From a virus: a stretch of DNA of 64,000 nt. The position numbers were made by a program, and so were the translations under genes. Of this stretch, positions 15 to 44,038 are shown piece after piece. Each line of letters starts with the position of its first letter. Within the stretch, counting starts at the first letter, position 1. Under the pieces are notes generated by a model that made no database searches, had not been told where the DNA came from, and was given only the letters and a program-made list of their open reading frames with translations. The stretch lies in IMG/VR virus record IMGVR_UViG_3300043411_001118, positions 1 to 64,000 of that record. One strand, written 5' to 3'.

Positions 15-151
15 TACCAACGGAGCTACCAACGGAGCTACCAACGGAGCTACCAACGGAGCTACCAACGGAGCTACCAACGGAGCTACCAACGGAGCTA
101 CCAACGGAGCTACCAACGGAGCTACCAACGGAGCTACCAACGGAGCTACCA
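15..151. repeat. 12-bp tandem repeat (TACCAACGGAGC) x11.4
   Basis: 11 perfect units from 15 plus a partial TACCA; overlaps the stop of the gp54-like gene. Confidence 0.98.
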
Positions 152-835
152 GTTCCCAGAAGCCCCGTTATTCCCTTCAGTCGGGTTTCCAAGCTCATCA
201 GCAATATCTGACCCAGACTTAGACAGATCATTTAAAACATCCTCATAAGCCCCTGGCTTGCCTCCAGGACCAATATCAATTGAACCAATATCAGACGGCA
301 ACCCAGATCCACCTGTTCCAGTATTGATAACCCTAACATGTCTATGGTATGCAAAAGTAATTGTTAGCTTGTGATAACTGTTGCTTGCCTCATATGACAA
401 CTCTTGGGCTACTATAACCTTTGGATAGGTTTCCTGGAACGTCATGCCATATGATGCAAGTCCATCAACACCCAATTGAAAAACTGTAATGTCTGTAACA
501 TAGTCATCGTAGTAACCAACGTAATTGGAATAAGGATCAATCACTTTCGATTGCCAAGCCTCAAAAAATCTTCTTTCGATCATCGACTCGGAACACATAA
601 AAGTTAAATCGAGATCGTCATACATTCCGGTGTATGGCATTTCTCGTTTTGGCCCAGATAGGATGTGTGGAGTAGTTGCGAGATTTCTTCCAGCAAGTGA
701 TGCGCGTTCGCAGCGCATGGCAATCTGCCTAACACTATCACCAAACGGGGATGTGATATACACAACATAATTGCATGGCCGCGCAAGCCCACCCGCTAAT
801 AAATCATTTTTCATTTCATCGACGTTAAATGCCAT
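146..835 (-). CDS. gp54: T4-like baseplate tail-tube initiator (gp54/gp19 fold)
   Basis: [34 protein letters not shown] motifs; synteny with gp2/gp4/gp48/gp53. Confidence 0.75.
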
Positions 836-1546
836 CTATTTCCTCTTTCTAATATTTCGACGCTGACCAGCTTTTGTTTGTGTTGCGCTCATCTTACGAC
901 CACCACCCTTGGCATTTTGTTTCTTGTCAAACTTCGCGCCTTGAGCCATTGCAATACGTCTTGAATCTTCCCAGACTTTTGATTTTGGTGCTTTCTTAAA
1001 TTGCTCGACAGGTAGGAATAGAGCAATCGGCCACTCAACAGATTCAATCCTTACGAACTTAGATTTCACATGACTAGTTAAGTACATTTTTAAACATGGC
1101 TTGAACCATTTAAATCTTGCAGCCGCAGCCAATGTCTTATAGGAGATATTTAATTTTGTTGAATCATTAAATCGTTTGTTATTCGCAATTGATAACAATG
1201 CATCAAGTAGGACAGCCCGATATTTTGGGGCAAGGTAGTGAAGATTGATTCCAAGGAATCGTCCCTTGCGAGGTGCTGGATCAATTGGGAATATTAATGG
1301 AAACCGATCATAATAGGGTAACGTTGCCTTATGTTTTGGATCATAGGCGAAAAAATACATTCGTCCTAATTGCCAATTTGATCTGAGACGTTCCGATTCT
1401 CCAACCAGATCAGATTCATCAGTACCCTTAGAAAATTTCTCAGTCCTAGCCTTATACCAATTAATTGCTTCTAATGATTTTGCTGGACCAATACCGGCCC
1501 TTAGCGCATCAGCCAAAATTTTATCAAATAGGGAGATATTTTCCAT
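836..1546 (-). CDS. gp2: DNA end protector protein
   Basis: GRMYFFAYDPKHKATLPYYDRFPL and GINLHYL motifs. Confidence 0.92.
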   Translation of the reverse strand: MENISLFDKILADALRAGIGPAKSLEAINWYKARTEKFSKGTDESDLVGESERLRSNWQLGRMYFFAYDPKHKATLPYYDRFPLIFPIDPAPRKGRFLGINLHYLAPKYRAVLLDALLSIANNKRFNDSTKLNISYKTLAAAARFKWFKPCLKMYLTSHVKSKFVRIESVEWPIALFLPVEQFKKAPKSKVWEDSRRIAMAQGAKFDKKQNAKGGGRKMSATQTKAGQRRNIRKRK

Positions 1547-1551
1547 GTCTG

Positions 1552-2109
1552 TTATTTAGGTGTAGATTTTGGTTTCTTCACAGTATTAGGCACTCTTCTA
1601 TACTTCGATTTTTTGACAGGGACGATTCCCTTAATACCAAATTTTTCTAATACATGCTCATCCCAGATTCTAAATTCCCATCCACGAGTTTCGCAGTATC
1701 TTTTCGCAGCTTCCCATTTTGACGTATTTTTGGCGTATCGTAAACATTCACGGATGAACACATGTTCTCGTTTCTCAGCAGATTTCACCGGGGGAGCAAC
1801 TTGGTATGCTGGCTTAATCTCGACAAGAATAGTTCGGCCTGAGTCCAGGACGATTTTTAGATCAACAAAGTAACGATGCAACCTGTTATCAGTCTTGCAC
1901 TTATATCCAATGATTGTTGTTTCTGAACTCCAACCACGGATTTTGTTATGACCATCAAGGAATGAAAATACCCTAAACTCCCAATTGGATCTTGCGATCA
2001 CGTTAGTCGGATCACCCATATACTTCGACGGATTTTTTACATGGTACTGACGATGTTTATCTTGATGTCTAAGTCTTGTTGATTTTCTCATGCAATCGTC
2101 CTGGATCAA
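1552..2109 (-). CDS. gp4: head completion nuclease (TnsA-like); start may be ATG 2091
   Basis: KYMGDPTNVIARSNWE, WSSE, HRYFVD, VEIKP, KWEAA motifs. Confidence 0.92.
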   Translation of the reverse strand: MIQDDCMRKSTRLRHQDKHRQYHVKNPSKYMGDPTNVIARSNWEFRVFSFLDGHNKIRGWSSETTIIGYKCKTDNRLHRYFVDLKIVLDSGRTILVEIKPAYQVAPPVKSAEKREHVFIRECLRYAKNTSKWEAAKRYCETRGWEFRIWDEHVLEKFGIKGIVPVKKSKYRRVPNTVKKPKSTPK

Positions 2110-2181
2110 TCTAAATTCACTTTTGTGAATTTGTTGGATGAACCAACTAAATATTACCGAACATACTTAGCAGCAAACCCA

Positions 2182-2931
2182 ATGCCCAGAACTCGACCAG
2201 CCTCAAAATTAGCCAACAATCCGTACAATAGTCCGAAACATTACTATCCGCAGGATTTGGGCAATGAAGGATCAGAGCCTTACATTCTATTTGATATTCG
2301 AGCCGGTGTTGTTGATAAGCCAACCCCACTAGCTGTAATTGGTCTCCCGATGCCTTTAAAACTTGGGGTTAGTTACGGCGCAGCCTATAAAGAAGTTTCG
2401 ATGACTCTTGATGTTTATAAATCTCTAGCGAATCATATGGAACCGATAACAGAGCTAGGTCGAATTATTGCAAAGGGACTCGACACCACTGGATCAAACC
2501 TATCAGCAGAATTTGAAAGAAGTCGCGGAGCAATTGTCAACCCGCACATGGCCACGCTATTTGAAGGAATTGGATTTCGAAGCTTCACATTTGATTTCAC
2601 ACTAGCAGCGCGAAACAGAGAAGAATCAGATTCAATTCAAAAATTGATTGCGCGTTTCAAGTATCACATGGTTCCTGGTGTTCCGGTCGGGGGCGCATAT
2701 CAAAGAGATCTTTTATATCCGGACAATTTTGTTATTTCATTACATTCACCCGTTCAATCGTACTTGTTCAAAATTGGCACATGCGCGTTAAAAAATATGG
2801 ATGTCGATTATTCCGGCGCAGGACAGACAGCATTTTTTAGAAATAGCGGTGCGCCTGTAATGATTCACTTAACTTTGACATTCCAGGAAATGACGATCAT
2901 GACTAAGGAATTAATTGAGCAAGGTTATTAA
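2182..2931 (+). CDS. gp48: baseplate tail-tube cap
   Basis: NPHMATLFEGIGFRSFTFDF and LTFQE motifs; TAAATA at 2148-2153 favours ATG 2182. Confidence 0.85.
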   Translation: MPRTRPASKLANNPYNSPKHYYPQDLGNEGSEPYILFDIRAGVVDKPTPLAVIGLPMPLKLGVSYGAAYKEVSMTLDVYKSLANHMEPITELGRIIAKGLDTTGSNLSAEFERSRGAIVNPHMATLFEGIGFRSFTFDFTLAARNREESDSIQKLIARFKYHMVPGVPVGGAYQRDLLYPDNFVISLHSPVQSYLFKIGTCALKNMDVDYSGAGQTAFFRNSGAPVMIHLTLTFQEMTIMTKELIEQGY

Positions 2932-2933
2932 CC

Positions 2934-3428
2934 ATGAGACACTTCCGATACTATCCAATTGAAAACTATGAATCGTCCTTGTGCATTGATATAACAGCAC
3001 GATCTAAGGTTAGAGATATCATCAAGGCTAACGTATTCATCTATTATCCGTACACGATAAAAGATGGCGAGAGACCTGATATCATTGCACATAAGTATTA
3101 TGGATCAGCAAATTATACTTGGATGGTTCTATATGCCAATGATATTTTCGATATGACCTTTGATTGGCCTCTCAGTTCTCAGGAATTTAATAGCTATATC
3201 ACTGAAAAATATGGATCTATTAGTGCAGCAAAATTAGAGATTCACCACTACGAAAATTCAGATGGTCTGATTATTGATGAGACCAGTTATCTTGCAGATT
3301 TGTCCGGTTCAATCATTTACTCGTTTGAACACGAAATGACCTTAAACGAAGCAAAGAGAGATATTAAGTTATTTGATGTCTCATACCGGGATCAGTTGGT
3401 TACAGAATTTAGAAGAATCTTCAAATGA
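2934..3428 (+). CDS. gp53: baseplate wedge subunit
   Basis: IKDGERPDIIAHKYYG...WMVLYAN...DWPLS. Confidence 0.92.
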   Translation: MRHFRYYPIENYESSLCIDITARSKVRDIIKANVFIYYPYTIKDGERPDIIAHKYYGSANYTWMVLYANDIFDMTFDWPLSSQEFNSYITEKYGSISAAKLEIHHYENSDGLIIDETSYLADLSGSIIYSFEHEMTLNEAKRDIKLFDVSYRDQLVTEFRRIFK

Positions 3429-4861
3429 TCGACGAAGTGAACGATCTCTCCTATAACCCTCCACTAGAGAAGATCAGGAAAGAACATGACTTTATCATTG
3501 AACAGATAAAGTTAGTCTCTCACACAGGGGCAGAGCATGAACTAAGTTTCATTAGAGATGAGCTAAGGATCTATGCAGACCTATACAGTTCTACAATGTC
3601 CGGATCAATCTCAGTCAATGATGCAGTCGATCTTCCCCAGTTGATTCCGTTACTAGGTGAGGAAAAAATTAAGATCACGTTCACTAGACCAAATGTCACA
3701 GTTGATCCAATTGCGGGGGAAATGGGGGTAACTGTTACTGAGGATATACTTGATTCCATCGATATGGAATTCATCATCTATAAATTGGGGAATAGGGAAC
3801 TTAGTAAAGATAAGCTTCAGAAATATACATTATACTTTACTACCCAAGAGCGATTAAATGATATCAGGACGATTGTTGGAAAGTCGTTTAAGGATAAGCC
3901 GTTTCACGAAGTTGTCGAAATTATCTATGATGAGAGTATCAAGGATGGTTCCAAGGGAGCGAAAGCTAAGGAACTAATTGTAGAGCCGACTAGGTATAGT
4001 CAGAATTTTATAGCTTGTAATAAGAGACCAATTGAATTGATTCAGCAAATATGCTCAAGGGCGATTTCCGATGAAGGGAATGGTTCAAGCTATGTGTTCT
4101 ATGAGGATCAGGAGAATTTTAATTTCATTACCCTGAGTAAGTTAGTTCAAGGTGAAGTCAAAGAACAGTATGTCTATAACCTTGCTAACGTACACCGGCC
4201 TGAAGGTGGATTGATCAAAGCACAGGATATCGCAGCCGATCTTAGGTCCGTTCAGGAATACGAATTCACAAAAGAGTTTGACATCATCGACAAAGCTAAT
4301 AAGGGTTTATACGGATCAAGGCTAATGACCTATGATCTATACAGACAAAAAATTGATGAAGTGGAATTCGATTATCAGGAAGCATTTAAAACCTATCCGC
4401 ATCTTGATGCGAATGATGTACATACACTAGAGGCTGAGATTTTTGGATATCCCGATGCACATTTTATGTGTATGGAAACGGATAAAGAACAGGACACGGT
4501 TCCTTACATTGCGGAAAATGATCCAGATTTGAAACCAAGGTACATTGAAGAGTCTGTCCAGGTTAGAAAGCATCAACAAAATTTACTGGACTATCGCAAG
4601 TGCCAAGTCGTTGTCTCAGGAGATCCACGAAGGAAGCCGGGGGATGTTGTCGAATTTAAACTTCCTTCCGCAATGGGAAATTTGAGTGAGGAATACCCCA
4701 AGGAAGATGACAAGTATCTTTCTGGTAAATACCTAGTCATGGCAGTTTGTCATGTCTTGTTAAAGAACAGATACTCAATGATCATGGAACTTGTTAAAGA
4801 CTCGTTCGTTGAAAAACCTGAGTATGTTGATCCGAATTCACTTTATGAAGACACCTATTAG
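3425..4861 (+). CDS. probable baseplate hub (gp27-like)
   Basis: 478 aa directly after gp53; YVFYE, GD...PGDVV and SGKYLV..V.H motifs typical of this position. Confidence 0.6.
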   Translation: MIDEVNDLSYNPPLEKIRKEHDFIIEQIKLVSHTGAEHELSFIRDELRIYADLYSSTMSGSISVNDAVDLPQLIPLLGEEKIKITFTRPNVTVDPIAGEMGVTVTEDILDSIDMEFIIYKLGNRELSKDKLQKYTLYFTTQERLNDIRTIVGKSFKDKPFHEVVEIIYDESIKDGSKGAKAKELIVEPTRYSQNFIACNKRPIELIQQICSRAISDEGNGSSYVFYEDQENFNFITLSKLVQGEVKEQYVYNLANVHRPEGGLIKAQDIAADLRSVQEYEFTKEFDIIDKANKGLYGSRLMTYDLYRQKIDEVEFDYQEAFKTYPHLDANDVHTLEAEIFGYPDAHFMCMETDKEQDTVPYIAENDPDLKPRYIEESVQVRKHQQNLLDYRKCQVVVSGDPRRKPGDVVEFKLPSAMGNLSEEYPKEDDKYLSGKYLVMAVCHVLLKNRYSMIMELVKDSFVEKPEYVDPNSLYEDTY

Positions 4862-4871
4862 GAAAGGATAA

Positions 4872-5225
4872 ATGAAAACTTACAAGCAAATTTTAAAAGA
4901 ATCAAAAACCTTACTTAGTGAAGATGGATTTCTCAACAGCTTAGAGAGTCTATTTGATCTCAAAAAGGCTAAGCAGAATGTGAAGGCTGGAGTTTCTTTA
5001 ACCAAGGAAATGATTCAAGCCGTCAAAAAACACGATCCAGAAGACAAGGCAACTATAAAAGATTATGAGAATGACATCTACGACTTAGAAGAAATTTTTC
5101 TTGCATTGGATAACGAAGAGGTAACAGAGGCAATTAAGATGTTTGATAAGTTAAGTGGTGATATCGCGGATAGGGTAATCGATCCGGTACAATATAAAAG
5201 ATCTTTTCGCAAAGATTTTTTCTAG
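4872..5225 (+). CDS. putative internal head protein
   Basis: N-terminus MKTYKQILKE resembles the T4 capsid-targeting sequence; in late operon. Confidence 0.55.
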   Translation: MKTYKQILKESKTLLSEDGFLNSLESLFDLKKAKQNVKAGVSLTKEMIQAVKKHDPEDKATIKDYENDIYDLEEIFLALDNEEVTEAIKMFDKLSGDIADRVIDPVQYKRSFRKDFF

Positions 5226-5271
5226 AATCGTCCCTGAGCTACCGAAGGAGCAAGAGCTAAACTTCCCCATC

Positions 5272-6291
5272 ATGAAAAAATACTCCACATTTCTTCTTGA
5301 AGCTCAACTCACACATTCCGATGCAGTTAAAATTCTTGGGCTAAAGCCCGGATACTCTCCAGACGATCTATCCTCGACCTATAAGCTAATGGCTAAACTT
5401 CACCATCCAGATAAAGGTGGGGATGTTGAGCAAATGAAACAGATCAATGCAGCTTATAATTTGCTGAAGGGATCGCCATCTGGAGATGATGAACAAAAAT
5501 CTTGGGACAAGTATCAGGCTAGAAAAAAACGGGATACCGAAAACTTAACTGATATCTTAGAAGTCTTTACTAAGAAATATCAACCAGGAATCTTTAAAGC
5601 CTATTTTGAAGACATCTACGGTATATCATTTAAGATGGAAACTTCATCACATATTGGAATGTATGGAGCTAATGTAAAATCGAAATACTTTAGTGAAGAT
5701 CGCGGAACTGTTATTGATATTGAATTCTATATGTCCGTGAATAGTACCAACGGAGATGCGAAATTAGGACCAGACGAACATTCTGGAGTTGGAATGACTA
5801 TATCCAGGACGATTTTTCATAACAGGAGACGGATCAAACTAGCTCAACAGAACTATTCGTTTGAATCGGACTATCGAGTGTTATCACAACCGGAGAAATT
5901 GTTTCCTAAAGACAAGATGGTTGATAAGTCTAAGAATGCAGGAAATTTGAAATTTAAGAAAGCTGATGCAATCTTAACAATCAAAAATGAGTTAGGTGCA
6001 AGGTGGGATGGAACCCAGTGGATGCGGATTCCCTTGAATGACAAATATACCTTGGTAATTTATCGATTGACTTCAATGGGTATTGGAACATGGGGAACTA
6101 GTGGGATCTACGAAGGGAACCGGCGCGTATCGAATGGACCGTTTCTATTACTAGTTGAGAATCAAAAAATTATCTACTGGTTTGTCGAACAGGTCAAGGG
6201 ACGATTACAGAAAGATATCGACTTAGCGCACATTCAAAAAGTTTTGATCGACATGGGCGCAGAATATAAAGAGTTGATCAAGAATCTTTAG
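5272..6291 (+). CDS. J-domain (DnaJ-like) protein with capsid-targeting-like N-terminus
   Basis: ILGL...YKLMAKLHHPDKGG...INAAYNLL with HPD motif; N-terminus MKKYSTFLLE. Confidence 0.85.
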   Translation: MKKYSTFLLEAQLTHSDAVKILGLKPGYSPDDLSSTYKLMAKLHHPDKGGDVEQMKQINAAYNLLKGSPSGDDEQKSWDKYQARKKRDTENLTDILEVFTKKYQPGIFKAYFEDIYGISFKMETSSHIGMYGANVKSKYFSEDRGTVIDIEFYMSVNSTNGDAKLGPDEHSGVGMTISRTIFHNRRRIKLAQQNYSFESDYRVLSQPEKLFPKDKMVDKSKNAGNLKFKKADAILTIKNELGARWDGTQWMRIPLNDKYTLVIYRLTSMGIGTWGTSGIYEGNRRVSNGPFLLLVENQKIIYWFVEQVKGRLQKDIDLAHIQKVLIDMGAEYKELIKNL

Positions 6292-6451
6292 CGATTTTAG
6301 CAGTAGAATTCGCAACTAATTTTTCGATATCCCATAAAGTCACTTTAGTAGCACCCCTCAGTTCTGGAGTCATTAACGAGTAATGTATTTTACTCCACAC
6401 ATGGCTTTTAATATTGATACGAACTAGTTGGTAATTTGCTTTTGGTTTCAT
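6278..6451 (-). CDS. 57-aa mini-protein missed by the ORF track, paralog of 7092..7292
   Basis: hand translation MKPKANYQLVRINIKSHVWSKIHYSL...KVTLWDIEK matches the paralog. Confidence 0.8.
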   Translation of the reverse strand: MKPKANYQLVRINIKSHVWSKIHYSLMTPELRGATKVTLWDIEKLVANSTAKIAKDS

Positions 6452-6465
6452 ATTCTGGTGTGTCC

Positions 6466-6690
6466 TTATAAAAATATTGGATCGTCACTCCAATAACCAA
6501 GAAAATACGCTGGCATTTCGCGTCTAACAGGGACCATCGAATTTTCTATTGATATGGTAAATAGTTTCTGTGCTGATTGAAATTTTTCATGAATCACAAG
6601 CTTATTATAATACAACAAATCGATCTTGTTCTTACGCTGTAAGGTTTCTGCAATTTTTGCAGATACGCCATTGAGATTAAAATCGTTCAT
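6466..6690 (-). CDS. hypothetical mini-protein
   Basis: array member, ATGA overlap. Confidence 0.65.
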   Translation of the reverse strand: MNDFNLNGVSAKIAETLQRKNKIDLLYYNKLVIHEKFQSAQKLFTISIENSMVPVRREMPAYFLGYWSDDPIFL

Positions 6691-6878
6691 GTTTTATGTG
6701 GGATGTCAGAATTTATCACTAGGGTTTGTAAAGGTTGATAATATTTTTTCACCTCGATTCCCCTTAACGCGCCAATTAATTTCGTGTTGAATATTTTATT
6801 CCAGAACATGTCATTTATTATCCTAGTGGGTCCATTTTCGTTAACAATGTGGTCCAGGTAATTTATCGGTTTATTCAT
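6687..6878 (-). CDS. hypothetical mini-protein
   Basis: array member. Confidence 0.65.
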   Translation of the reverse strand: MNKPINYLDHIVNENGPTRIINDMFWNKIFNTKLIGALRGIEVKKYYQPLQTLVINSDIPHKT

Positions 6879-6884
6879 AATTAT

Positions 6885-7085
6885 TTAAATTCCCAAAAAT
6901 TGATTCAGTAAAAATCTAACACTCGATTGCCCGATATTTGAACGAACCTCCGCGAATACATTGGCATCAGAAAGAATTTTTAAATCCCAACTAATCTCGC
7001 GGGAAATTGATTTGGATATCTTAGTCGAAATTTTTTGATACATTTTATTCTCGATGCGTTCTTCAGGCTCTAATTTTTTGGTCAT
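6885..7085 (-). CDS. hypothetical mini-protein with 4-residue periodicity (KISTKISKSISREIS)
   Basis: array member. Confidence 0.65.
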   Translation of the reverse strand: MTKKLEPEERIENKMYQKISTKISKSISREISWDLKILSDANVFAEVRSNIGQSSVRFLLNQFLGI

Positions 7086-7091
7086 AATTGT

Positions 7092-7292
7092 TTAGCGCAG
7101 AGCGCCCCCGATATCGACATTTCTTTCAGTAATTACGTCCACTAGTAAATTCGCAGTCATTTTTTCGATATCCCAGATAGTCACTTTCCTAGCACCCTTT
7201 ATGTTTGGAGTTATCAATTGGTAATGTATTTTACTCCACACATGGGTTTTAATCTTGATACGAACTTGCTGATGGTTTGAATTGGGTTTCAT
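7092..7292 (-). CDS. hypothetical mini-protein, paralog of 6278..6451
   Basis: start set at ATG 7292 by alignment with the paralog. Confidence 0.75.
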   Translation of the reverse strand: MKPNSNHQQVRIKIKTHVWSKIHYQLITPNIKGARKVTIWDIEKMTANLLVDVITERNVDIGGALR

Positions 7293-7296
7293 ATTC

Positions 7297-7479
7297 TCAT
7301 TCTTCCAACATGACATTTTGAATTTGAGATTGTCTAAGTACGTTGTCTACTTCCGATACTAAAATAATAAAGAGCAATCTTTGAACCTCACCCAAAGGTT
7401 TTGGACCTTTATTAAATAAATTAGTTTCCATGGTTCGTATGCATGTATCAATTTTGAATTTCACATCTTGATTATCCAT
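7297..7479 (-). CDS. hypothetical mini-protein
   Basis: array member. Confidence 0.6.
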   Translation of the reverse strand: MDNQDVKFKIDTCIRTMETNLFNKGPKPLGEVQRLLFIILVSEVDNVLRQSQIQNVMLEE

Positions 7480-7696
7480 GACTGACCATCTTATATACTT
7501 CGGGACTATCCATTCTTGTGATCATCCTTCCGATTCCCCTCATCTTATATTGAATTTCGAATACCGCATCCATAGTTAATTCGTAAGAACCATCACCAAA
7601 ATTAAAAACTTTGTCCTGACCGAGATCGTATTGCATCCGACCTAATACATGGTGGATACGAGAGGATATTTCGGCAATGTCTCTTTCAGTGTCCAT
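7472..7696 (-). CDS. hypothetical mini-protein
   Basis: array member. Confidence 0.6.
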   Translation of the reverse strand: MDTERDIAEISSRIHHVLGRMQYDLGQDKVFNFGDGSYELTMDAVFEIQYKMRGIGRMITRMDSPEVYKMVSHG

Positions 7697-7856
7697 TTTC
7701 GATCCTTTGATGAAGACAAGTTACTTCCCTTATACTCGATTCCATTAGTTGAATCATTAACAAAGTGTAGACAGAAAATTGGAAAGGAAACTCTAGCTCC
7801 GACTTAAAAAATTCATCAAGAGCATTGTAGATGTGCGCCGATTTTTGCTCATTCAT
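7686..7856 (-). CDS. hypothetical mini-protein
   Basis: array member; ATGA-coupled start at 7856. Confidence 0.55.
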   Translation of the reverse strand: MNEQKSAHIYNALDEFFKSELEFPFQFSVYTLLMIQLMESSIREVTCLHQRIENGH

Positions 7857-8083
7857 AATTTCGTTCTCAATCGTCCTTGATGTATCCAAGCTACTACCTG
7901 TGAGGAATTTCTTATTATCTGATTGAACGGACCTCTAACCTCTACTTGAAATAACCAAGAATCATTCACGGAAACATGATTGATAACTTCTGGCATAGAT
8001 TTAATAACAGCCTCGTCAATCGTTTGGGAACATTGTTGGGATATCAACATTCCAGAAATTTTTATGTTGGTTTGATTATTCAT
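7853..8083 (-). CDS. hypothetical mini-protein ending QGRLRTKL
   Basis: array member. Confidence 0.65.
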   Translation of the reverse strand: MNNQTNIKISGMLISQQCSQTIDEAVIKSMPEVINHVSVNDSWLFQVEVRGPFNQIIRNSSQVVAWIHQGRLRTKL

Positions 8084-8089
8084 ACTATC

Positions 8090-8302
8090 CTAAAATCGTC
8101 CCTTGTATAACGCTCGACGAATGTTAAATTCTTGAGAACTTTCCATTCGAGTTTGAATTGCGGCTATTAAATCCGTTACATAGTAATTTGGCATTGGAAT
8201 AATTGTGGATGGCAAACTTTGATTCAAGGAACATTCCAAGGATTCTAATGTCCTTAAAATACAATCCACATCTCCATATTGCATTTTAATTTGTTTGTTC
8301 AT
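8090..8302 (-). CDS. hypothetical mini-protein ending KGRF
   Basis: array member. Confidence 0.65.
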   Translation of the reverse strand: MNKQIKMQYGDVDCILRTLESLECSLNQSLPSTIIPMPNYYVTDLIAAIQTRMESSQEFNIRRALYKGRF

Positions 8303-8303
8303 A

Positions 8304-8504
8304 CTATTCTAACCTCAATCGTCCCGAAACTAATTTTTGAAACCCCAACAAAATCGTCTCATACGCTACACATGTTATATGTGATGACCACGAAATTTTT
8401 GATAGTCCTGGAATATTTGAATCTAGTCTCCACCCGATCTTTTGTAATGTATAATCGATTTCTCCCATCTTATTAAATGCTATGTTTGCTTGATGCTCAT
8501 TCAT
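8304..8504 (-). CDS. hypothetical mini-protein ending SGRLRLE
   Basis: array member; ATG 8504 follows the stop of the upstream ORF. Confidence 0.6.
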   Translation of the reverse strand: MNEHQANIAFNKMGEIDYTLQKIGWRLDSNIPGLSKISWSSHITCVAYETILLGFQKLVSGRLRLE

Positions 8505-8505
8505 A

Positions 8506-8718
8506 TTAAAACTCCGGAAAAATACGAGAGTCTGAACCATGTGCGCCCACATTCCAGATTGTGGCGAGTAATTCCCAATAATAATGTTGTATCGCGTAGT
8601 TAGTAAAGTGTTGAAGGTTTTGGTCCAAGGACGATTCGATAGCTTTAGCTCTTTCAGTAGCTTCAATGGCTATAATAATTCTAGAGTTTCCATCCTCTGT
8701 CCAAAGTTTATTTTCCAT
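8506..8718 (-). CDS. hypothetical mini-protein
   Basis: array member. Confidence 0.6.
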   Translation of the reverse strand: MENKLWTEDGNSRIIIAIEATERAKAIESSLDQNLQHFTNYAIQHYYWELLATIWNVGAHGSDSRIFPEF

Positions 8719-8952
8719 TTATTTTAACCTCAATCGTCCCTTGTCTAAATTCCTCAATCTCATCAAAATTTCCTGGTCCAACCAAACTACCATACTATAC
8801 TCAAGTTCTGGAGTCTGTTCAAATAATGTCCAATCGATTCTTTCGACCCCGTTATCAATGTGTACAACCCGACTCAGACCAAAATTTGGACCAACGACAT
8901 CCACACTTACTTGTTTTGAATCAAGAGTTTTGTCTCGTGGCATTATTTTCAT
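8719..8952 (-). CDS. hypothetical mini-protein ending KGRLRLK
   Basis: array member. Confidence 0.65.
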   Translation of the reverse strand: MKIMPRDKTLDSKQVSVDVVGPNFGLSRVVHIDNGVERIDWTLFEQTPELEYSMVVWLDQEILMRLRNLDKGRLRLK

Positions 8953-9149
8953 AGTATCCTTCTTTGATTGGCCAATTTCTCTGGAGATGATTGATTCAAC
9001 ATTAAATTTAACTCCTGGATACGATTTTCGAATCGAAGCTGTTGGTATGCCGATACTTCAACCAAATCAAAAAATCCAACAAATATCTTGTGCTTTAAAG
9101 ATTCTCGAATCGCCCACGAATATCGAACACTGGAGTTTGGCTTATTCAT
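8949..9149 (-). CDS. hypothetical mini-protein
   Basis: array member; ATG 9149 overlaps the end of the upstream ORF. Confidence 0.55.
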   Translation of the reverse strand: MNKPNSSVRYSWAIRESLKHKIFVGFFDLVEVSAYQQLRFENRIQELNLMLNQSSPEKLANQRRIL

Positions 9150-9345
9150 TTGGTGTAAATCCAAAATTCGATCTATTGACTTCTCGCATATTCTGAAACC
9201 AAGTGAATAAATTCGTATGAACCACGCCAATAAAATCATAAGGAATTTGTCGAAATGATCCATGACGAAACTCATTTTCGATATGTTCTCTAATCCCCGC
9301 CGCAACTTCCTCGGAAATTATATGTGATTGAAGTTGATGATCCAT
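9142..9345 (-). CDS. hypothetical mini-protein
   Basis: array member. Confidence 0.6.
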   Translation of the reverse strand: MDHQLQSHIISEEVAAGIREHIENEFRHGSFRQIPYDFIGVVHTNLFTWFQNMREVNRSNFGFTPNE

Positions 9346-9346
9346 A

Positions 9347-9589
9347 TCAATACCCCATCGATTTTCGAAGATCTTGTTCCACCAAAAAATCGTGATCCGA
9401 CACTACATTCTGAATATCAAACTCGAAGTTAATTAATTTTATAACTCCATCGATTGAAAGTCTGTTAGTTATTCCATACCTCAAATCATTTTCCACGTTA
9501 CGCTGAATTCGAACCTTTATCAGCTTGCCGAAATTTGCATCGAGATGGCTTAGCATAGCCTTACCATCATGTTCGATATTACTTGTCAC
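9347..9589 (-). CDS. hypothetical mini-protein
   Basis: array member. Confidence 0.6.
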   Translation of the reverse strand: MTSNIEHDGKAMLSHLDANFGKLIKVRIQRNVENDLRYGITNRLSIDGVIKLINFEFDIQNVVSDHDFLVEQDLRKSMGY

Positions 9590-9770
9590 GTCTGACCTCT
9601 TGATGCAAAAATCGAATCATATAATTTAGATCCCAGAGAATTTCAAAATTTGCCTCTTCTATCAGAGCCGACAAATCTATTTTATTCTTACAAATTGATA
9701 TGTTATTATCCACCTTAATAACATTAGTGGCATCTCGAATATCCTCTCGTATCGATTGACGGTCCATCAA
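9579..9770 (-). CDS. hypothetical mini-protein
   Basis: array member. Confidence 0.6.
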   Translation of the reverse strand: MMDRQSIREDIRDATNVIKVDNNISICKNKIDLSALIEEANFEILWDLNYMIRFLHQEVRRDK

Positions 9771-9964
9771 TCCTCCCGATTAATTTCTATCGATTCGACT
9801 TCAGAAATGTCATAAGCCGAATTTACTGTTAGCCGATATTTTCCACTCTTCATTTTCTCTAACATAAAAATCGGTCCACCAGACATAGTGATCGTTATGA
9901 ATTTTTCGATCTCGAAGTCTGTGGATGTTCCGTCTTTATTTTTGAAATGTAATGATCTTTTCAC
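9767..9964 (-). CDS. hypothetical protein
   Basis: coupled ORF in early operon. Confidence 0.6.
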   Translation of the reverse strand: MKRSLHFKNKDGTSTDFEIEKFITITMSGGPIFMLEKMKSGKYRLTVNSAYDISEVESIEINRED

Positions 9965-10185
9965 AATACCCTTGCCTTCATAGTCTCCGTATCGAATTGA
10001 ACTGTAACATACTCGCCATGTTCAATCCACTTTTGGAGTTTGTCGTATTGCTCAGACTCTCTTTTTTCGATCAATGCCTCACGTTCATACTCATCTGTTA
10101 TCTCTTTTGGGATTGAAGCAATTACCGCATCCCGCACCGCATCCGAGACTGTATCAGGATCTTTAAATGTAATTTCAATAATCAT
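9961..10185 (-). CDS. hypothetical phage protein
   Basis: ITFKDPD...WIEHGEYVTVQFDT; coupled ORF. Confidence 0.7.
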   Translation of the reverse strand: MIIEITFKDPDTVSDAVRDAVIASIPKEITDEYEREALIEKRESEQYDKLQKWIEHGEYVTVQFDTETMKARVL

Positions 10186-10487
10186 ATTTTCTCCGACAAA
10201 ATTCCTTGAATTTTGAGTGTTGAAATGATTGCCCTCATTCCTGCTTGTAGTCCAGCACGATAATCATCGAGCCTTTCTTCAGTTAAGTCTTTGGTCACGG
10301 TCTTAGCCCACTTAATTTGTTCAGTTTCGATCTGATTCTGCCAATTGTAAAGTAGGGAAAAATCAACTATTCCGCTTCCTTTAGTCATCGATTTATTTTC
10401 CTTTGCCAACCTGGCTTGTTCTTGTGGATTACAACACCACGGCATCCCGCGCTCATAACCACATTTATCACAATACATTCCTGTCAT
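10182..10487 (-). CDS. hypothetical protein with N-terminal Cys cluster
   Basis: coupled ORF. Confidence 0.6.
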   Translation of the reverse strand: MTGMYCDKCGYERGMPWCCNPQEQARLAKENKSMTKGSGIVDFSLLYNWQNQIETEQIKWAKTVTKDLTEERLDDYRAGLQAGMRAIISTLKIQGILSEKI

Positions 10488-10996
10488 ACATGAACCTCCA
10501 CATTGATTTCAGAAACATTCTTTCCTTGCAGTTCTCGAATCATCCAAGCTTCAACAATTGAAGGGATGTTCGAAAAGTGAGTCCAGATATTTTCCTCTCC
10601 CTCGATTGTCGCCTGATATCCTCCGTAATTGTTCGATCTAAAAACAACGAACCCCGGCGCAATTTCGACACCAGAAGAATTTGTTAACGCCTCAATCAAT
10701 GGTGTGATTTCAGTTTCTTTCTTTTTGAATTGTTCGAGATTTCTTAACGCTCGAATCGCTTCCCAGTCGTACTCCACAAAAACGAACGTGTTCCCACCAG
10801 ACAAAATTTCTTGACTGTATTCGCAATATCGAACCGACTCATATTTCTTAGCAATCGTTTTGATTGGTTCGATGTTGATCGATAAATCCTTGATTCTTAC
10901 ATTGACCGATGAATAGTCACTTGTGACGCTAACCTGTGACGGTTTGATTCCAAGTGCCTTAAGTTCTTTTCTGATTTCCTTAGCTTCCTGTGTCAT
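10484..10996 (-). CDS. early hypothetical protein (LPD29-like N-terminus)
   Basis: AKEIRKELKA..VSV.SDYSSVNV; AGGAG RBS; first gene after an early promoter. Confidence 0.6.
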   Translation of the reverse strand: MTQEAKEIRKELKALGIKPSQVSVTSDYSSVNVRIKDLSINIEPIKTIAKKYESVRYCEYSQEILSGGNTFVFVEYDWEAIRALRNLEQFKKKETEITPLIEALTNSSGVEIAPGFVVFRSNNYGGYQATIEGEENIWTHFSNIPSIVEAWMIRELQGKNVSEINVEVHV

Positions 10997-11023
10997 AATG
11001 TATCTCCTATCAATTTCAATTAT

Positions 11024-11052
11024 AAAGTACCAAAATCATCCAAACTTGTCAA
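11024..11052 (-). promoter_or_regulatory. sigma70-type early promoter
   Basis: TTGACA-17-TACTTT, spacer contains TTTGGATGATTT. Confidence 0.85.
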
Positions 11053-11063
11053 GAATTAAAACC

Positions 11064-11390
11064 TTATCGTCCTAATTCATTTAACGCTTGTCTCAGATTT
11101 TCTCTCGTACTGGATAGAATCCCGTTTGCACGATTGAACGCCTGAGTGATTGTATTCTCTGCCTTTCGGTTTGCTTCGGTGACGATTCGATTTGCTTCGG
11201 TTGTGGCCTCTGCGATCAACGTCTCACAACCTTTGCGGGTTTCTGTGATACTTGCCGATGGGTAAATGTCCGAGCGAACATCACGCTCGACCTCAATTAA
11301 TACCGACTCCAACCACGGTCCTAGATAACTCTCAAGTCCGAGTTTTTCGATTGATTCTTTTAAGATTTTAATTTCTTGTTCTTTAGTCAT
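11064..11390 (-). CDS. early hypothetical protein with coiled-coil C-terminus
   Basis: ATG 11390 with GGAGG RBS. Confidence 0.7.
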   Translation of the reverse strand: MTKEQEIKILKESIEKLGLESYLGPWLESVLIEVERDVRSDIYPSASITETRKGCETLIAEATTEANRIVTEANRKAENTITQAFNRANGILSSTRENLRQALNELGR

Positions 11391-11462
11391 TTTGTCCTCC
11401 ATCAAATGATTGATTCTTTCAACCACATGTATATGATGCCATAAATTATCCAAACTTGTCAA
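11391..11462 (-). promoter_or_regulatory. early promoter + stem-loop + RBS cassette
   Basis: TTGACA-18-CATCAT, then TGGTTGA-aagaa-TCAATCA, then GGAGG. Confidence 0.8.
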
Positions 11463-11594
11463 CTATTAAATCGTCCCTGCACCGCCCCACAACTACCTGT
11501 CATTATATGCACCACTTCCGTTCGTATATGGTGCCTATTTCGACAAGTGCTTGCTATTTTAAACACCATTTGATTTCACCTGATCGAGCTAATT

Positions 11595-11602
11595 AATAAA
11601 TA
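11595..11602 (+). promoter_or_regulatory. T4-type late promoter
   Basis: AATAAATA 5 nt before ATG 11608. Confidence 0.7.
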
Positions 11603-11607
11603 CCTGG

Positions 11608-12642
11608 ATGAAATTCTCCCAATTCTTAACTGAACTGCAAATAGCTAAGCTTCCAGGATTGGGCCTAGCAAGGCATAAAATGCCTCAGATTGCCGGGGAT
11701 AAGATTCAAGCATTCCTAGCCAAGCTTAGGCAAGACGGCATCTCAAGCCGAACTACGACCATTGAGGCATCAAGGCTGAAGCCGACTCAGAATGAATACA
11801 ATGTCGAGAAAGTCAAGGCATTGAAGCAACAGATCTTGAATCTGGACCTGAAGCCAAAACCATTAATCTGTTCTATTGATAACTACATTCTAGATGGTCA
11901 TCACACTTGGTTAGCTCGTAAAGAAATTAATCCACACTACCCAGTTCATGTTATCCAAGTGAACCTTCCTATTAAAGCATTGATTGATGTCGCATCTGAA
12001 TTCGAACACGCAAGACATAAGAATATTCATGAAACGTTTTTAAGTTTTTTGCGCGAAAAGAAAGAACCCGTTACTGATCCGAGACAGCCTTGGGAGAATC
12101 CAAAGGATGTTGAGAACACAGAGGCATTGAAGAAATATTATGATGAAATCATTTCAAAAATTCAAGAAGCTAAAAATGCATTCAATAGAATTTTGAAATT
12201 AGAAGGTCAAGGCGGGAAAGTTCTTTTGGGTTTGAAGCCGTTTGATAGTTTTATTGATAAGGTTGTCAAACGAGGAAAACCGGCAGATCAAATTCATGAT
12301 GTGCTTCGCGGAGCAATCTTGATGTCAACAAGTGAAGATGTTGATCGTGTTGTAAAGAGCATTGCTAAAAGATATCGAATTTACGAACACGAAGTAAAAG
12401 ATAAAGAACATACGAATGAGTTTGGTTATTATGGTTCACACCATTTTAAAATATTAGTTCCAACTAAAACTTCTGGTGGAGTTATTGCGGAAATTCAGAT
12501 CATGACAAAAAAACTTTGGTCATATAAATCTGTCGCACATGACATCTATACCAAGTGGAGAAGTTCAGAGGAAATTGATTCTGATATCCGAGCGCAGGAT
12601 GTTGCTTGGTCAAAAGAATTATTTCGGCTTGGTAATCGCTAG
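11608..12642 (+). CDS. ParB/Srx-domain + RelA/SpoT small alarmone synthetase-like fusion with capsid-targeting-like N-terminus
   Basis: LKPTQ...ILDGHHTW (ParB/Srx); KPFDSFIDK, HDVLRG, GYYGSHH, EIQIMT, AHDIY (SYNTH motifs); N-terminus MKFSQFLTE. Confidence 0.82.
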   Translation: MKFSQFLTELQIAKLPGLGLARHKMPQIAGDKIQAFLAKLRQDGISSRTTTIEASRLKPTQNEYNVEKVKALKQQILNLDLKPKPLICSIDNYILDGHHTWLARKEINPHYPVHVIQVNLPIKALIDVASEFEHARHKNIHETFLSFLREKKEPVTDPRQPWENPKDVENTEALKKYYDEIISKIQEAKNAFNRILKLEGQGGKVLLGLKPFDSFIDKVVKRGKPADQIHDVLRGAILMSTSEDVDRVVKSIAKRYRIYEHEVKDKEHTNEFGYYGSHHFKILVPTKTSGGVIAEIQIMTKKLWSYKSVAHDIYTKWRSSEEIDSDIRAQDVAWSKELFRLGNR

Positions 12643-12978
12643 GTATTTATTGCCATCTTTAATGACTTGATAATTTAGCTCAGATTCAATAATTTTAATG
12701 AATCGGTTGTAGACTCGAACCCGACTTTTCTCCATTGCAGAAAACCAAAAATATGGTGGGTAGTTTTCGAAAATATATTCACTTAGAATCTCGAATACAT
12801 TTTTTAGAACTCGAAATGGGTTTTTTGATTCGTTTGTTATTCGGGTTTGTGATAGTGAGTAACCCATGTCATCTGTCTTTCTTTCGTTGATCAGAGCAAA
12901 GGATATTTCCGAAGTTTTAGATACAATGAATTTATAAATGGAGCCATCAATCACAAATTGTTTCTCAAAATTATTCAT
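12619..12978 (-). CDS. hypothetical protein coupled to the hydrolase gene
   Basis: ATGA overlap with upstream gene; FSA...SRVRVYNR motif. Confidence 0.7.
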   Translation of the reverse strand: MNNFEKQFVIDGSIYKFIVSKTSEISFALINERKTDDMGYSLSQTRITNESKNPFRVLKNVFEILSEYIFENYPPYFWFSAMEKSRVRVYNRFIKIIESELNYQVIKDGNKYLAITKPK

Positions 12979-13406
12979 GTCATTTTCTGTCCAGAAAGAA
13001 ACTCATAATATTTTTTATATTCCTCAACCCTTACAAAATCTTTCGCGGTTAGATTCTTCAACCTAGAAATTTGCGCGTTATGCTTCAAGTCTGACATCTT
13101 AACAACTCTTGCCAGTGGATTTCTTTTTATCTTTTTGAAATACTCATCGGACGATCCAATACCCTTGGTTAATAGTTGTACAGCATTTATTAAGTTTTGG
13201 GGGATTCCCTTAACTAATAGGTCATTAGGAAATAGGGGAGTATCTTCTAAGATGTCGTGAAGATAGGCGACGATCTTTTCTTCTGTGGTATTGACACCAG
13301 CAACAACAGCTTCAATGTGTTTGATGTACGATTCGCCACCCAAATCTTTTTGATTGGCGTGGTATTTCAAAGCCAATTCTTTCGCAATTTCGAGTACCTT
13401 ATTCAC
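12975..13406 (-). CDS. HD-domain small alarmone hydrolase (Mesh1/SAH-like)
   Basis: HANQKDLGGESYIKH, LHDILEDT, VKMSDLKHN; GTG 13406 with GGAGG RBS. Confidence 0.88.
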   Translation of the reverse strand: MNKVLEIAKELALKYHANQKDLGGESYIKHIEAVVAGVNTTEEKIVAYLHDILEDTPLFPNDLLVKGIPQNLINAVQLLTKGIGSSDEYFKKIKRNPLARVVKMSDLKHNAQISRLKNLTAKDFVRVEEYKKYYEFLSGQKMT

Positions 13407-13425
13407 GTCTCTAACCTCCATAATC

Positions 13426-13454
13426 AATATACCAAACTTATCCAAATATGTCAA
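13426..13454 (-). promoter_or_regulatory. sigma70-type early promoter
   Basis: TTGACA-17-TATATT with TTTGGATAAGTTT spacer. Confidence 0.85.
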
Positions 13455-13465
13455 ATAAAATCTTA

Positions 13466-13657
13466 TTAGTCCCTTAGTTGCGCTAGCGCCATTTTGATGG
13501 TCTCTGTAGACGCACCAGATAGCTTTCCTGCTAGTTTTATTTTAGCCCTGTTAGCCGGGGTATTCATCTCGGAGATTTCTCCAGACGTGTCAGTTGCCCT
13601 GCTTGGTGGATGCGACCGCATCTTCCTAATCTTGGCTTTACTACTTTTACTAGTCAT
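13466..13657 (-). CDS. small basic early protein
   Basis: own promoter and GGAAGGTG RBS. Confidence 0.65.
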   Translation of the reverse strand: MTSKSSKAKIRKMRSHPPSRATDTSGEISEMNTPANRAKIKLAGKLSGASTETIKMALAQLRD

Positions 13658-17894: not shown

Positions 17895-17921
17895 AATGTA
17901 TCTCCTATCAATTTCAATTAT

Positions 17922-17951
17922 AAAATACTACAAATTAACAAAACTTGTCAA
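17922..17951 (-). promoter_or_regulatory. sigma70-type early promoter
   Basis: TTGACA-18-TATTTT; leader 17892-17924 identical to 10994-11026. Confidence 0.8.
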
Positions 17952-21252: not shown

Positions 21253-21492
21253 TTATTTTTTCTTTTTGTTTTTCTTCCTTGGTTTTCTTCTTAGGAGATG
21301 GTGAAGTTTTGCCTCTTTGGTTAATCGCTTTTTGATACTGTCATTTAGTAAAGCAGGGACTCTTTCAATCTCGATCTGTTTTTCTTTGGCGCATATCATG
21401 ATCGCATCCATGACTGTTAAATCTGGATTCGATAGCAGGGACGAAACCGATGTTGAAAATTTCTCTTTGTTGGAAACGAATTTTTCAGACAT
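21253..21492 (-). CDS. gp33: late transcription co-activator
   Basis: MDAI..C....IEIE....L...IK..L..EA..L pattern; synteny. Confidence 0.85.
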   Translation of the reverse strand: MSEKFVSNKEKFSTSVSSLLSNPDLTVMDAIMICAKEKQIEIERVPALLNDSIKKRLTKEAKLHHLLRRKPRKKNKKKK

Positions 21493-21910
21493 TGGTTCCC
21501 CGCATACTCATCTTCGTAAATTGGTCTCTTATAAAATTTCTTTTCTTTCTCTGGTTTATATTTTTTAAACATGTCGGATGTCCCCCGGGGGGAAGTTTAA
21601 CATAGTTTTCGAGTAATAATTTTGCTCTCATTTTCTTTTTTTTGTGATGAAGAAAATTATAGATTTTATCTAAGAATGGTATTACTTCAGTGTCCTGCAA
21701 TATCCAATTATAATATGATCTCCAATTTGGATTCTTTCCGCTATTATTGATAAACTCTAACGAACCACCAAAATTATCTTTAAAAAAAACTACCAACTCT
21801 TTATCGCAAGATGTAATTTTGACTCTGGGACGCAACCTTTTGGAAAATGTAATGCACCCCTCACCATCGAACATTCCAGCCGCATACGCAATAATTTCTT
21901 GTCTTGTCAT
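21485..21910 (-). CDS. free-standing LAGLIDADG homing endonuclease
   Basis: IAYAAGMFDGEGCI, single motif. Confidence 0.85.
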   Translation of the reverse strand: MTRQEIIAYAAGMFDGEGCITFSKRLRPRVKITSCDKELVVFFKDNFGGSLEFINNSGKNPNWRSYYNWILQDTEVIPFLDKIYNFLHHKKKKMRAKLLLENYVKLPPGGHPTCLKNINQRKKRNFIRDQFTKMSMRGTNV

Positions 21911-36199: not shown

Positions 36200-36795
36200 T
36201 CAATCGTCCATGAACAAAGTTTTTCTTCCCGATAAATCTGACAACACCAGAACTTCTTGATTCCCAAATATTTGATTTAACCGATGATAGATTTTCTGAT
36301 TTACAACGAATGTTAACAATTGATGTTCTCCCGAACGAAACCGTTCAGCTATTTCGCTCATCATCAAATCATGTATTTTTCTTTGAGTATCAACCCTAAA
36401 ATATTTCACTTCTTATCGTCCTGGATCAATCTCTCCAATCTTTTCTTAGCTGCCACTGGCAATCTTTTCATCTGTAAGACTTCATAAATCTCATCAGTCA
36501 TCTCTAAATTTTTGGATTTGAGATCGTCACGTTCATCTTCTAACTCACCAATTTCTTGTTTGGATGAATCGTCGGCTTCTCTTAACTCTTCAACTTCAGA
36601 TTGAATGATTTCGTATTGCTCGAACTGTTCAACAACCTCCACCCAATTTTTGAGGATGCGCGAAATCAAATCTAAGTCGGATGGACTTAAATTTTCTGGA
36701 TTATTTAATTTACGAATGGTATCCCCTAGCCAATTTGTATGAACTAAAGAACCACATCTGTTAAGAATCTCATCTGCAATTGCTGAATCAAACAT
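36200..36795 (-). other. two early hypothetical ORFs (36200..36409, 36406..36795)
   Basis: downstream of the promoter at 36853. Confidence 0.65.
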
Positions 36796-43216: not shown

Positions 43217-44038
43217 ATGAAAAAATACTTAATTCCTCCATGCGCTTATCAAGGCGGCAAACAACGATTATCTAAAATCATTGTTGACGAAATTTTAAAA
43301 AATACAGATTCAACAACCAACTTTGTCGATCTCTGTTGTGGGAGTGGTGCAATTTCTTTGGAGTTAATCAATCGAGGAACTTCTCCAAAACAAATAACAA
43401 TGGTCGATCTTTCTCCGTGGGGTTTGTTCTGGGAATCGATTGGAAACGAAACCTTCAATCTGATGACATGGAAGTTTTGTATTGATTCAATCCCAACAGA
43501 TCCTAGACTGATCAAATCTTACGTTGAACACATTCGAAATTCTAAACCAGGAGAAAATAAATTATATGAATTTTTAATTTTACAGGCATGTTCGTTTGGT
43601 TCCACACCGGTCTATATTAAAAATGGTATTTGGAATCAATGTGGCTTCAGAAACTACTGGACCCCAACAGCTACGAGCAATAGAAAATCTCATGTGAATC
43701 CGATGATGCCTATGCCACAAACCTTATATCAAAGAGTTGTTGATATAGTACAAACTGCTAATGGAGTTTGTGGATATTGTACAAACGTAGAAACGTTCGC
43801 CCCCGAAAAATCTTCTGTTGTTTATATTGATCCACCATATCAGAAAACTTCTGGGTATGGATATAATTTTGATTACATGACATTCATTAAAAATAATCCA
43901 ACCACAAAAATTTATCTATCAGAAGGAATTTCTTTATCCGAGAATTCGATTCTTCTTTCAAATATCAGAAAGAAGGGTGGAATCAGTGGATCAAGAAAAT
44001 CTTCCAACGAAGAATGGCTTAATATTTTTGGTTCCTAA
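43217..44038 (+). CDS. DNA adenine methyltransferase (D12 class), specificity unknown
   Basis: YQGGKQR, DLCCGSGA, YIDPPY; inverted relative to neighbours. Confidence 0.88.
   Translation: MKKYLIPPCAYQGGKQRLSKIIVDEILKNTDSTTNFVDLCCGSGAISLELINRGTSPKQITMVDLSPWGLFWESIGNETFNLMTWKFCIDSIPTDPRLIKSYVEHIRNSKPGENKLYEFLILQACSFGSTPVYIKNGIWNQCGFRNYWTPTATSNRKSHVNPMMPMPQTLYQRVVDIVQTANGVCGYCTNVETFAPEKSSVVYIDPPYQKTSGYGYNFDYMTFIKNNPTTKIYLSEGISLSENSILLSNIRKKGGISGSRKSSNEEWLNIFGS

Follow-up and report, generated by a model that had tools for sequence, protein, structure and literature searches.

Clusters of small, non-essential ORFans served by strong sigma-70-like early promoters have been described in T4-type phages as hyperplastic regions, and promoter/stem-loop (PeSL) cassettes as the elements at which such ORFans are shuffled (Arbiol et al. 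2010, PMC2839356; Comeau et al. 2014, PMC4122927). The "ORFanage" of cyanophage S-PM2 is reported to be a dispensable locus that carries a cost to fitness under laboratory conditions (Puxty et al. 2015, PMC4503421). Here, we examine an array of 17 minus-strand open reading frames (ORFs) of 56-80 aa each, which fill positions 6278-9767 (~3.5 kb) in the first 64 kb (hereafter, the window) of a 103,807-bp (~104 kb) virus contig, IMG/VR record IMGVR_UViG_3300043411_001118, and in which four successive gene joints contain the 8-nt word GGACGATT. The closest description of this locus is that of the hyperplastic regions, and the locus is a real but ordinary, putatively early ORFan operon of the usual "hyperplastic/ORFanage" kind. 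In our preferred reading, to which we assign a probability of roughly 0.68, the array would be the distal 3.5 kb of a single early unit of orphan genes in a T4-like non-core region, partly built by duplication, with joints held by translation and with the word as a separate matter. Such an array is a textbook-type reservoir of early phage genes, unsurprising in itself, which offers 21 candidates for screens of host take-over and counter-defence.

The likenesses to the hyperplastic regions are (i) a T4-like genome in which small, homolog-less, non-core genes lie between core modules (here, baseplate, head, and tail genes at 146-4861, and gp32, a gp59-type loader, and other replication genes from 19.6 kb on), and (ii) strong sigma-70-like promoters that are early by their consensus, 4 of 12 with a leader hairpin, together with one promoter-leader cassette that is repeated. 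Unlike PeSL cassettes, the array has neither a promoter nor a stem-loop in its interior, and its repeated element is a 25-35-nt stop/ribosome-site/start joint within a polycistronic unit. Because no promoter or stem-loop lies inside it, the array falls outside the PeSL definition, with PeSL-like units present elsewhere in the contig. Like the S-PM2 ORFanage, it is a single locus of a T4-like phage filled with homolog-less ORFs.

In poxvirus gene accordions, such as K3L amplification, tandem duplication expands a host-interaction gene, and the copies are recent, near-identical, and variable in number within populations. The array has tandem duplication in common with these, but its copies share 29-69% identity, and the locus was seen in one form only. 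Tandem Repeats Finder reported no tandem repeat in the array. Moreover, the only public run that contains the stretch, a freshwater DNA metagenome from which the contig probably came, shows a single locus form at 5000-11500, with no variants or alternative joints, although this run is kept as contigs only and cannot exclude them. The array therefore falls outside the definition of a gene accordion, because it has no detected tandem repeat, old copies, and one locus form (in contigs only).

A probable early unit of small genes

The array genes lie, in coordinate order and all on the minus strand, at 6278-6451 (57 aa), 6466-6690 (74 aa), 6687-6878 (63 aa), 6885-7085 (66 aa), 7092-7292 (66 aa), 7297-7479 (60 aa), 7472-7696 (74 aa), 7686-7856 (56 aa), 7853-8083 (76 aa), 8090-8302 (70 aa), 8304-8504 (66 aa), 8506-8718 (70 aa), 8719-8952 (77 aa), 8949-9149 (the 14th, 66 aa), 9142-9345 (67 aa), 9347-9589 (80 aa), and 9579-9767 (62 aa). 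By these coordinates, their joints range from -11 nt (overlap) to +14 nt (gap). The stop codons are mixed (8 TAA, 7 TGA, and 2 TAG), which indicates that there is no recoding in the array, and most of the starts (ATG or GTG) are preceded by GGAG/GAGG-like sites. The ORF list and the sequence bear out a preliminary description of this DNA, made from its letters, as far as it reported 17 co-oriented, abutting mini-ORFs of 56-80 aa. The span given there, 6278..9770, does contain these ORFs, but the series does not end at 9770, as four more minus-strand genes abut up to 10996. The first of these, 9767-9964 (65 aa), abuts the array, and the next three, 9961-10185 (74 aa), 10182-10487 (101 aa), and 10484-10996 (170 aa), each overlap their neighbor; the annotated frame is the best one in all four.

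A conserved promoter, consisting of TTGACA-NN-TTTGGAT(G/A)ATT and, downstream, an extended -10 region, occurs 12 times in the contig, always on the minus strand, at 11052, 11462, 13454, 13736, 15580, 17951, 18467, 36853, and 44875 in the window and at 88905, 89226, and 90867 in the rest of the contig. The early-type promoter nearest to the unit (11019..11052) comprises TTGACA and the conserved spacer, followed by the leader and the ribosome-binding site of the gene that starts at 10996. A second early-type promoter (11433..11462) is preceded by a copy of GGACGATT, 6 nt before the -35 element, and followed by a leader hairpin of -8.0 kcal/mol. Leader hairpins of -8 to -13 kcal/mol follow 4 of the 12 promoters (11462, 13736, 15580, and 18467), which makes these PeSL-like units. 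None of the 12 promoter copies lies within 6278-10996, and no terminator-like hairpin was found within 6278-10484; a generic scan of 4800-13600 found sigma-70-like and terminator-like sites to be no commoner than in shuffles. Because no internal promoter or terminator was found, all 21 genes would be read through, and we infer that 10996 down to 6278 is one early polycistronic unit of 21 genes (~4.8 kb, minus strand), which ends convergently against a plus-strand gene for a DnaJ-domain protein (5272-6291). Host RNA polymerase would start at the two sigma-70-type promoters, 11052 and 11462, and ribosomes would move from gene to gene over the short joints by translational coupling.

Three further observations concern the promoter copies. 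Several of the 12 were mistaken for TTG start codons by longest-ORF calling. A near-identical cassette of promoter, leader, and ribosome site is present at 10997-11052 and at 17895-17951, before two unrelated genes (10996 and 17894; 50/75 positions). The first of these cassettes coincides with a branch in the contigs of the freshwater run at 10997-11030.

Paralog pairs and conserved joints

We compared the array proteins by all-vs-all BLASTP and by a shuffling z-test of the 171 pairs among 19 small proteins at 6278-10185 (the 17 and the next two upstream), with 171 pairs of array proteins and other small proteins as controls. The closest pair, 6278-6451 and 7092-7292 (family A), shows 69% identity over 48 aa (E 1e-25, z = 36.9) and 81% nucleotide identity over 150 nt, which confirms the paralog pair named in the preliminary description. 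These two copies are 841 nt apart, with three unrelated genes in between, and they have diverged to a dS of 0.36 with a dN/dS of 0.55, differing at 8, 6, and 14 sites in codon positions 1, 2, and 3, respectively. The second pair, 8304-8504 and 8719-8952, is more remote, with 29% identity over 62 aa (E 5e-5 in the array set, z = 8.6), and it remains similar when the first four residues and the tails are trimmed (z = 3.8, P = 0.002). The top control reached a z of 5.4, a value that only these 2 of the 171 pairs exceed, and the same two pairs alone survive a six-frame search of the whole contig (E 1e-21 and E 0.003, respectively).

Two paralog pairs are therefore demonstrable at the level of sequence, and the other array members appear to be unrelated orphans. 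Both duplications are old, to judge from the dS of one pair and the amino acid identity of the other. The all-vs-all comparison proposed in the preliminary description, run here on sequences, thus finds two related pairs and leaves the remaining 169 within the range of the controls. The duplication proposed there is upheld by the two pairs and by four homologous joints with a period of ~220 nt, but not as kinship of most members. Among weaker candidates, the pair 9347/9579 reached an E of 0.003 in the small array set and only 0.1-0.18 against the whole contig, and it was rejected; the pair 8090/8506 is marginal (z = 3.8 in local alignment, 2.7 without termini), given that 10% of the background pairs exceed a z of 2. 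Without termini, pairs with 7853 or 7686 are at background, except for a marginal 7686/7853 (z = 2.3, P = 0.023). The proteins of 6687-6878 and 8949-9149 both begin with MNKP(I/N) and have no further similarity.

The four homologous joints are successive, lie on the minus strand, and have 25-35 nt in common. Joint 1 (8718; 8700..8748) comprises tail codons, GGACGATT (8732-8739), and GAGGTTAAAATAA, followed by the ATG of the next gene. Joint 2 (8302; 8284..8333) has GGACGATT (8317-8324), GAGGTTAGAATAGT, and then ATGAACAAACAAA; joint 3 (8083; 8064..8110) has GGACGATT (8094-8101), TTAGGATAGT, and then ATGAATAATCAAA; and joint 4 (7845..7885) has GGACGATT (7869-7876), GAGAACGAAATT, and then ATGA, in which the start overlaps the stop. 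The words at 7869, 8094, 8317, and 8732 are spaced by 225, 223, and 415 nt, as expected from the earlier remark that the first three are about 224 bp apart, and the likeness of the three junctions quoted with that remark is borne out by alignment. In each joint, the word is in frame 0, read as G-R-L/F, and lies 1-13 nt before its own stop and 10-14 nt before the next ATG; the chance that four independent sense-strand copies would all be so placed (frame 0, no more than 14 nt from a stop) is ~3e-7. Two longer strings, GGACGATTGAGGTTA(A/G)AATA in joints 8718 and 8302, and TTAG(A/G)ATAGTATGAA in joints 8302 and 8083, are found nowhere else in the contig.

Between joints 8302 and 8083, a 4-nt GAGG indel moves the stop and turns ...GRLRLE* into ...GRF*. 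The protein tails differ as a result: one literally ends in GRF, and the others continue for 3-4 residues (GRLRLE, GRLRLK, and GRLRTKL), with ...LVSGRLRLE in 8304-8504 and ...LDKGRLRLK in 8719-8952. The previous statement that four members end in GR(L/F) is thus correct for the in-frame word at the four positions and for a literal end in one protein only. An ORF at 36200-36409 that had been likened to these ends at the word, as stated, yet it lacks a GR(L/F) tail, reads the word in frame 2 (...MDD*), and shows no similarity to the array.

In our reading, the joints would be the remains of an old tandem family with a period of ~220 nt, whose gene bodies have diverged beyond recognition, and we assume that the stop/ribosome-site/start segment was kept by selection on coupled translation. 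The array grew partly by local duplication, which left a younger, dispersed pair (6278/7092) and what we read as an older tandem family (7686-8952). Within this family, only 8304 and 8719 still align lengthwise, and 8090 and 7853 retain just the termini, with MN(E/K/N)(H/Q) at the start and [LI]xxGR[LF] near the C-terminus. MN(E/K/N)(H/Q) starts are present in four consecutive genes (8304, 8090, 7853, and 7686), and proteins that start with MN comprise 7 of the 17 in the array, as against 10 of 167 elsewhere (P = 1.8e-4). The 25-35 nt of a joint would carry the codons of the tail, a ribosome-binding site, and the opening codons of the gene that follows, and would have to remain unstructured. 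Compared with shuffles, the joint RNAs show no excess of structure (z = 0.03 to 1.66), and Rfam gave no match in 5000-12000. On this account, stop-start junctions can outlast the genes that they join, a point of relevance to the way in which ORFan arrays arise in phages.

The tails also invite an explanation at the level of the protein, namely that [LI]xxGR[LF](RL) is a C-terminal docking or turnover tag for a common partner, carried on differing bodies, and that the word is merely the preferred spelling of G-R-L/F. In its favor, [LI]xxGR[LF] falls within the last 10 residues of exactly these 4 of the 184 predicted proteins, and 8 of the 13 G-R-[FL] sites genome-wide are spelled with the word, the four array tails being among the eight. 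With 8 of 13 sites using the word, the spelling of the tails needs no special explanation. The nucleotide identity of the joints, moreover, continues beyond the stop, through the spacer and into the start of the next coding sequence, which a peptide motif leaves unexplained, and the tails vary in length and in their end residues. We regard a tag as unlikely, although it is the alternative that fares best.

A genome-wide word

In the window, GGACGATT has 38 copies versus 2.45 expected, and none of 100 shuffles reached 38 or rose above 6. The contig as a whole has 60 copies versus ~3.5 expected, which makes the word its top over-represented 8-mer (z = 30), and all 24 one-letter variants are near their expected counts. 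The flanks are weakly biased, with C at -3, A/C at -2, A/G at -1, and a non-A after the word. Of the copies, 25 are on the plus strand and 35 on the minus strand, and they form no orientation domains (runs test P = 0.73, on a contig that represents ~57% of the genome). They are spaced nearly at random (coefficient of variation, 0.88) at ~1 copy per 1.7 kb and fall in all six frames relative to genes. The word is used at 53 of 143 peptide-compatible sites (37%), as compared with 4.0 expected from codon usage, and the 143 sites that permit it compare with 110 +/- 11 in shuffled proteins (the top of 200 shuffles being 141).

These counts argue that the word is selected at the DNA level throughout the genome, overriding codon choice and even amino acid choice. 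Accordingly, its presence in the array tails can be accounted for without a cause specific to the array, and it appears to be a phenomenon separate from the array, not a dedicated junction site. The idea that the word is an array-specific mark did not hold, given its 60 contig copies in all frames and on both strands. Five copies within 900 nt are not significant (P = 0.08); the fifth, at 8629..8636 (plus), is on the opposite strand, inside the gene 8506-8718. This copy and that at 8732-8739 (minus), 95 nt apart, lie in a 26-nt imperfect inverted repeat (73% complementary) over the start of 8506-8718. A DNA-reading protein would select for the word everywhere, and the GR[LF] tails would be sites where that pressure set the codon choice. 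Candidate readers include the phage primase (50061-51086), an HNH protein (21485-21910), and two DNA methyltransferases, encoded at 43217-44038 (plus) and 61293-62147 (minus), and the identity of the reader would bring to light a new aspect of the DNA biology of phages.

Chi and the uptake sequences DUS and USS are genome-wide signature words of known systems. Like them, GGACGATT is an exact, over-represented 8-mer that is present on both strands, lies inside genes, and overrides codon choice; unlike Chi, it has no orientation bias, by the runs test above on the ~57% complete contig. For comparison with DUS and USS, the 11-mer CAGGGACGATT, with 14 copies in the contig, was counted in 401 sampled Pseudomonadota genomes, where it is not enriched (0-10 copies per genome). 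In one 1.8-Mb genome, GGACGATT has 66 copies versus 35 for a reversed control. The cyanobacterial HIP1 palindrome has 0 copies in the contig. In the searchable literature, neither GGACGATT nor its complement was found as a word, and nothing relevant was found on over-represented 8-mers in phage genomes.

Several findings weigh against our preferred reading. The joints are 80-90% identical beside dissimilar gene bodies, and recombination at the joints would give the same picture. Joint 3 looks like a mosaic, in which the segment upstream of the word resembles joint 1 (17 nt, 94%) and the segment downstream resembles joint 2 (30 nt, 80%), which hints at an exchange at or near the word. The array ORFs have weakly positive coding scores (-5 to +5), and for two of them, 7686 and 8949, an antisense frame scores equally well. 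The early timing of the unit is read from the promoter consensus alone. Finally, no relative of the region was found in 50,697 phage records by megablast or blastn, and variability is the hallmark of hyperplastic regions.

The first two findings fit a cassette accordion driven by the word, in which GGACGATT would stimulate recombination and, at its joint copies, unequal or short-homology exchange would duplicate, delete, or swap small genes. Conserved joints between mostly unrelated gene bodies, a mosaic that switches at the word, and strong DNA-level selection on the word all speak for such a mechanism, and T4-type phages have documented recombination at short conserved cassettes (PMC2839356, PMC4122927). 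However, the other 56 copies of the word, which show no sign of exchange, are for the most part within ordinary genes and do not favor gene ends, as 3 of these 56 are within ~20 nt of a stop codon, compared with ~5 expected (hand count). The word also lacks orientation polarity, the duplicates are old, and an 8-nt core is by itself too short for homologous exchange. Taken together, these points make a word-driven accordion improbable. Slimmer still are the chances of a more specific proposal, in which GGACGATT would be a phage-private signal for the phage's own replication or recombination enzyme, which would locally break or prime the DNA, with the four joint copies as hot spots of unequal exchange. 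If word-driven hot spots of this kind did exist, the array would be a cassette system and a new route of ORFan turnover, distinct from PeSLs and integrons.

Coding status, products, and genomic setting

The 17 mini-ORFs are real and have the appearance of coding sequence. A 3-periodic Markov model was trained on the contig's 52 longest ORFs, with ORFs of 100-199 aa as controls. By this model, the annotated frame scores highest in 15 of the 17 array ORFs and in 67 of 69 controls. A 176-aa ORF on the opposite strand (8666-9196) is a shadow ORF, because its coding score is -15. That the mini-ORFs are not genes at all, but chance ORFs in non-coding spacer or in the remains of larger genes, is hardly credible: the low absolute coding scores with their two ties, the lack of homologs (in Pfam, in PHROG, and, for three members, among 5.8 billion proteins), and the poor structure models would agree with it, but the preference for the annotated frame, the 17 consecutive one-strand ORFs that fill 3.5 kb with joints of -11 to +14 nt, the ATG/GTG starts behind GGAG-like sites, the score of the opposite-strand ORF, and a paralog pair that keeps its frame with an excess of third-position changes all stand against it.

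None of the 17 array proteins reaches a family cut-off in Pfam or matches a PHROG at E <= 0.001, and the three array members that were searched in 5.8 billion proteins match only themselves. A HMMER profile of family A, run over 1.84 billion representative proteins, retrieved its own member and three long proteins, whose matches were rejected as tandem-repeat artefacts. AlphaFold2 models of 7092 (with 6278; pLDDT 57.5) and 8719 (with 8304; pLDDT 46.9) are too poor for a fold search, and the top feature scores in the ESM Atlas (<= 0.80) are at the level of chance. The array proteins are predicted to be soluble and without a membrane segment, and 7 are acidic and 6 basic; the products would be small, soluble, cytoplasmic proteins peculiar to this phage. 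Judging by the T4 early genes as an analogy, each product most likely binds and modulates one host factor, and the genes would be dispensable, fast-evolving, and engaged in host take-over or counter-defence; an anti-defence role, in particular, is suggested by analogy alone. The setting, a T4-like, putatively early operon of soluble proteins without membrane segments, fits the earlier suggestion of small host-interaction proteins.

The contig, with a CheckV completeness of ~57%, derives from an uncultured T4-like myovirus, apparently of freshwater. Its PHROG matches include a tail tube, a gp2-type DNA end protector, a head closure protein, and gp48/gp53-type baseplate proteins, as well as gp32, a gp59-type helicase loader, a gp61-type primase, and a gp41-type helicase for replication. 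Further genes encode PhoH, a class II ribonucleotide reductase, a peptide deformylase, and the two DNA methyltransferases. The best match of gp41 has 43-44% identity, to cyanophages and marine single-cell viruses, and the phage is distant from all cultured phages. Tunturiibacter phage Tunturi_5 was considered as a relative and rejected, as it is a phage of a different type, not T4-like, and has only the ribonucleotide reductase in common (61% identity). Protein-anchored scans of viral contigs (with the DnaJ-domain neighbor, the family A alignment, and the gp41 helicase) and of metagenome contigs (with the DnaJ-domain neighbor and family A) found no relative. A 16-nt string from a joint was found in two viral contigs of 52-55% GC, and it was set aside as a chance match, with no tblastx match between these and our contig.

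At the start of the contig, a copy of the word at 5-12 is immediately followed by 11 head-to-tail copies of a 12-nt unit, CCAACGGAGCTA, at 17-150, and the assembly probably broke in this repeat. The DnaJ-domain protein gene that faces the unit (5272-6291, plus; Pfam E 4.7e-8; phrog_13942) and the gene at 4872-5225 (plus) encode proteins that begin with MKKYSTFLLE and MKTYKQILKE, respectively, starts that we take to resemble the capsid-targeting leader of T4. On the other side, and encoded divergently from the early promoter region, the product of the gene at 11608-12642 (plus) has a RelA/SpoT-type nucleotidyltransferase domain (Pfam E 7.5e-11) and may be a phage alarmone synthetase.

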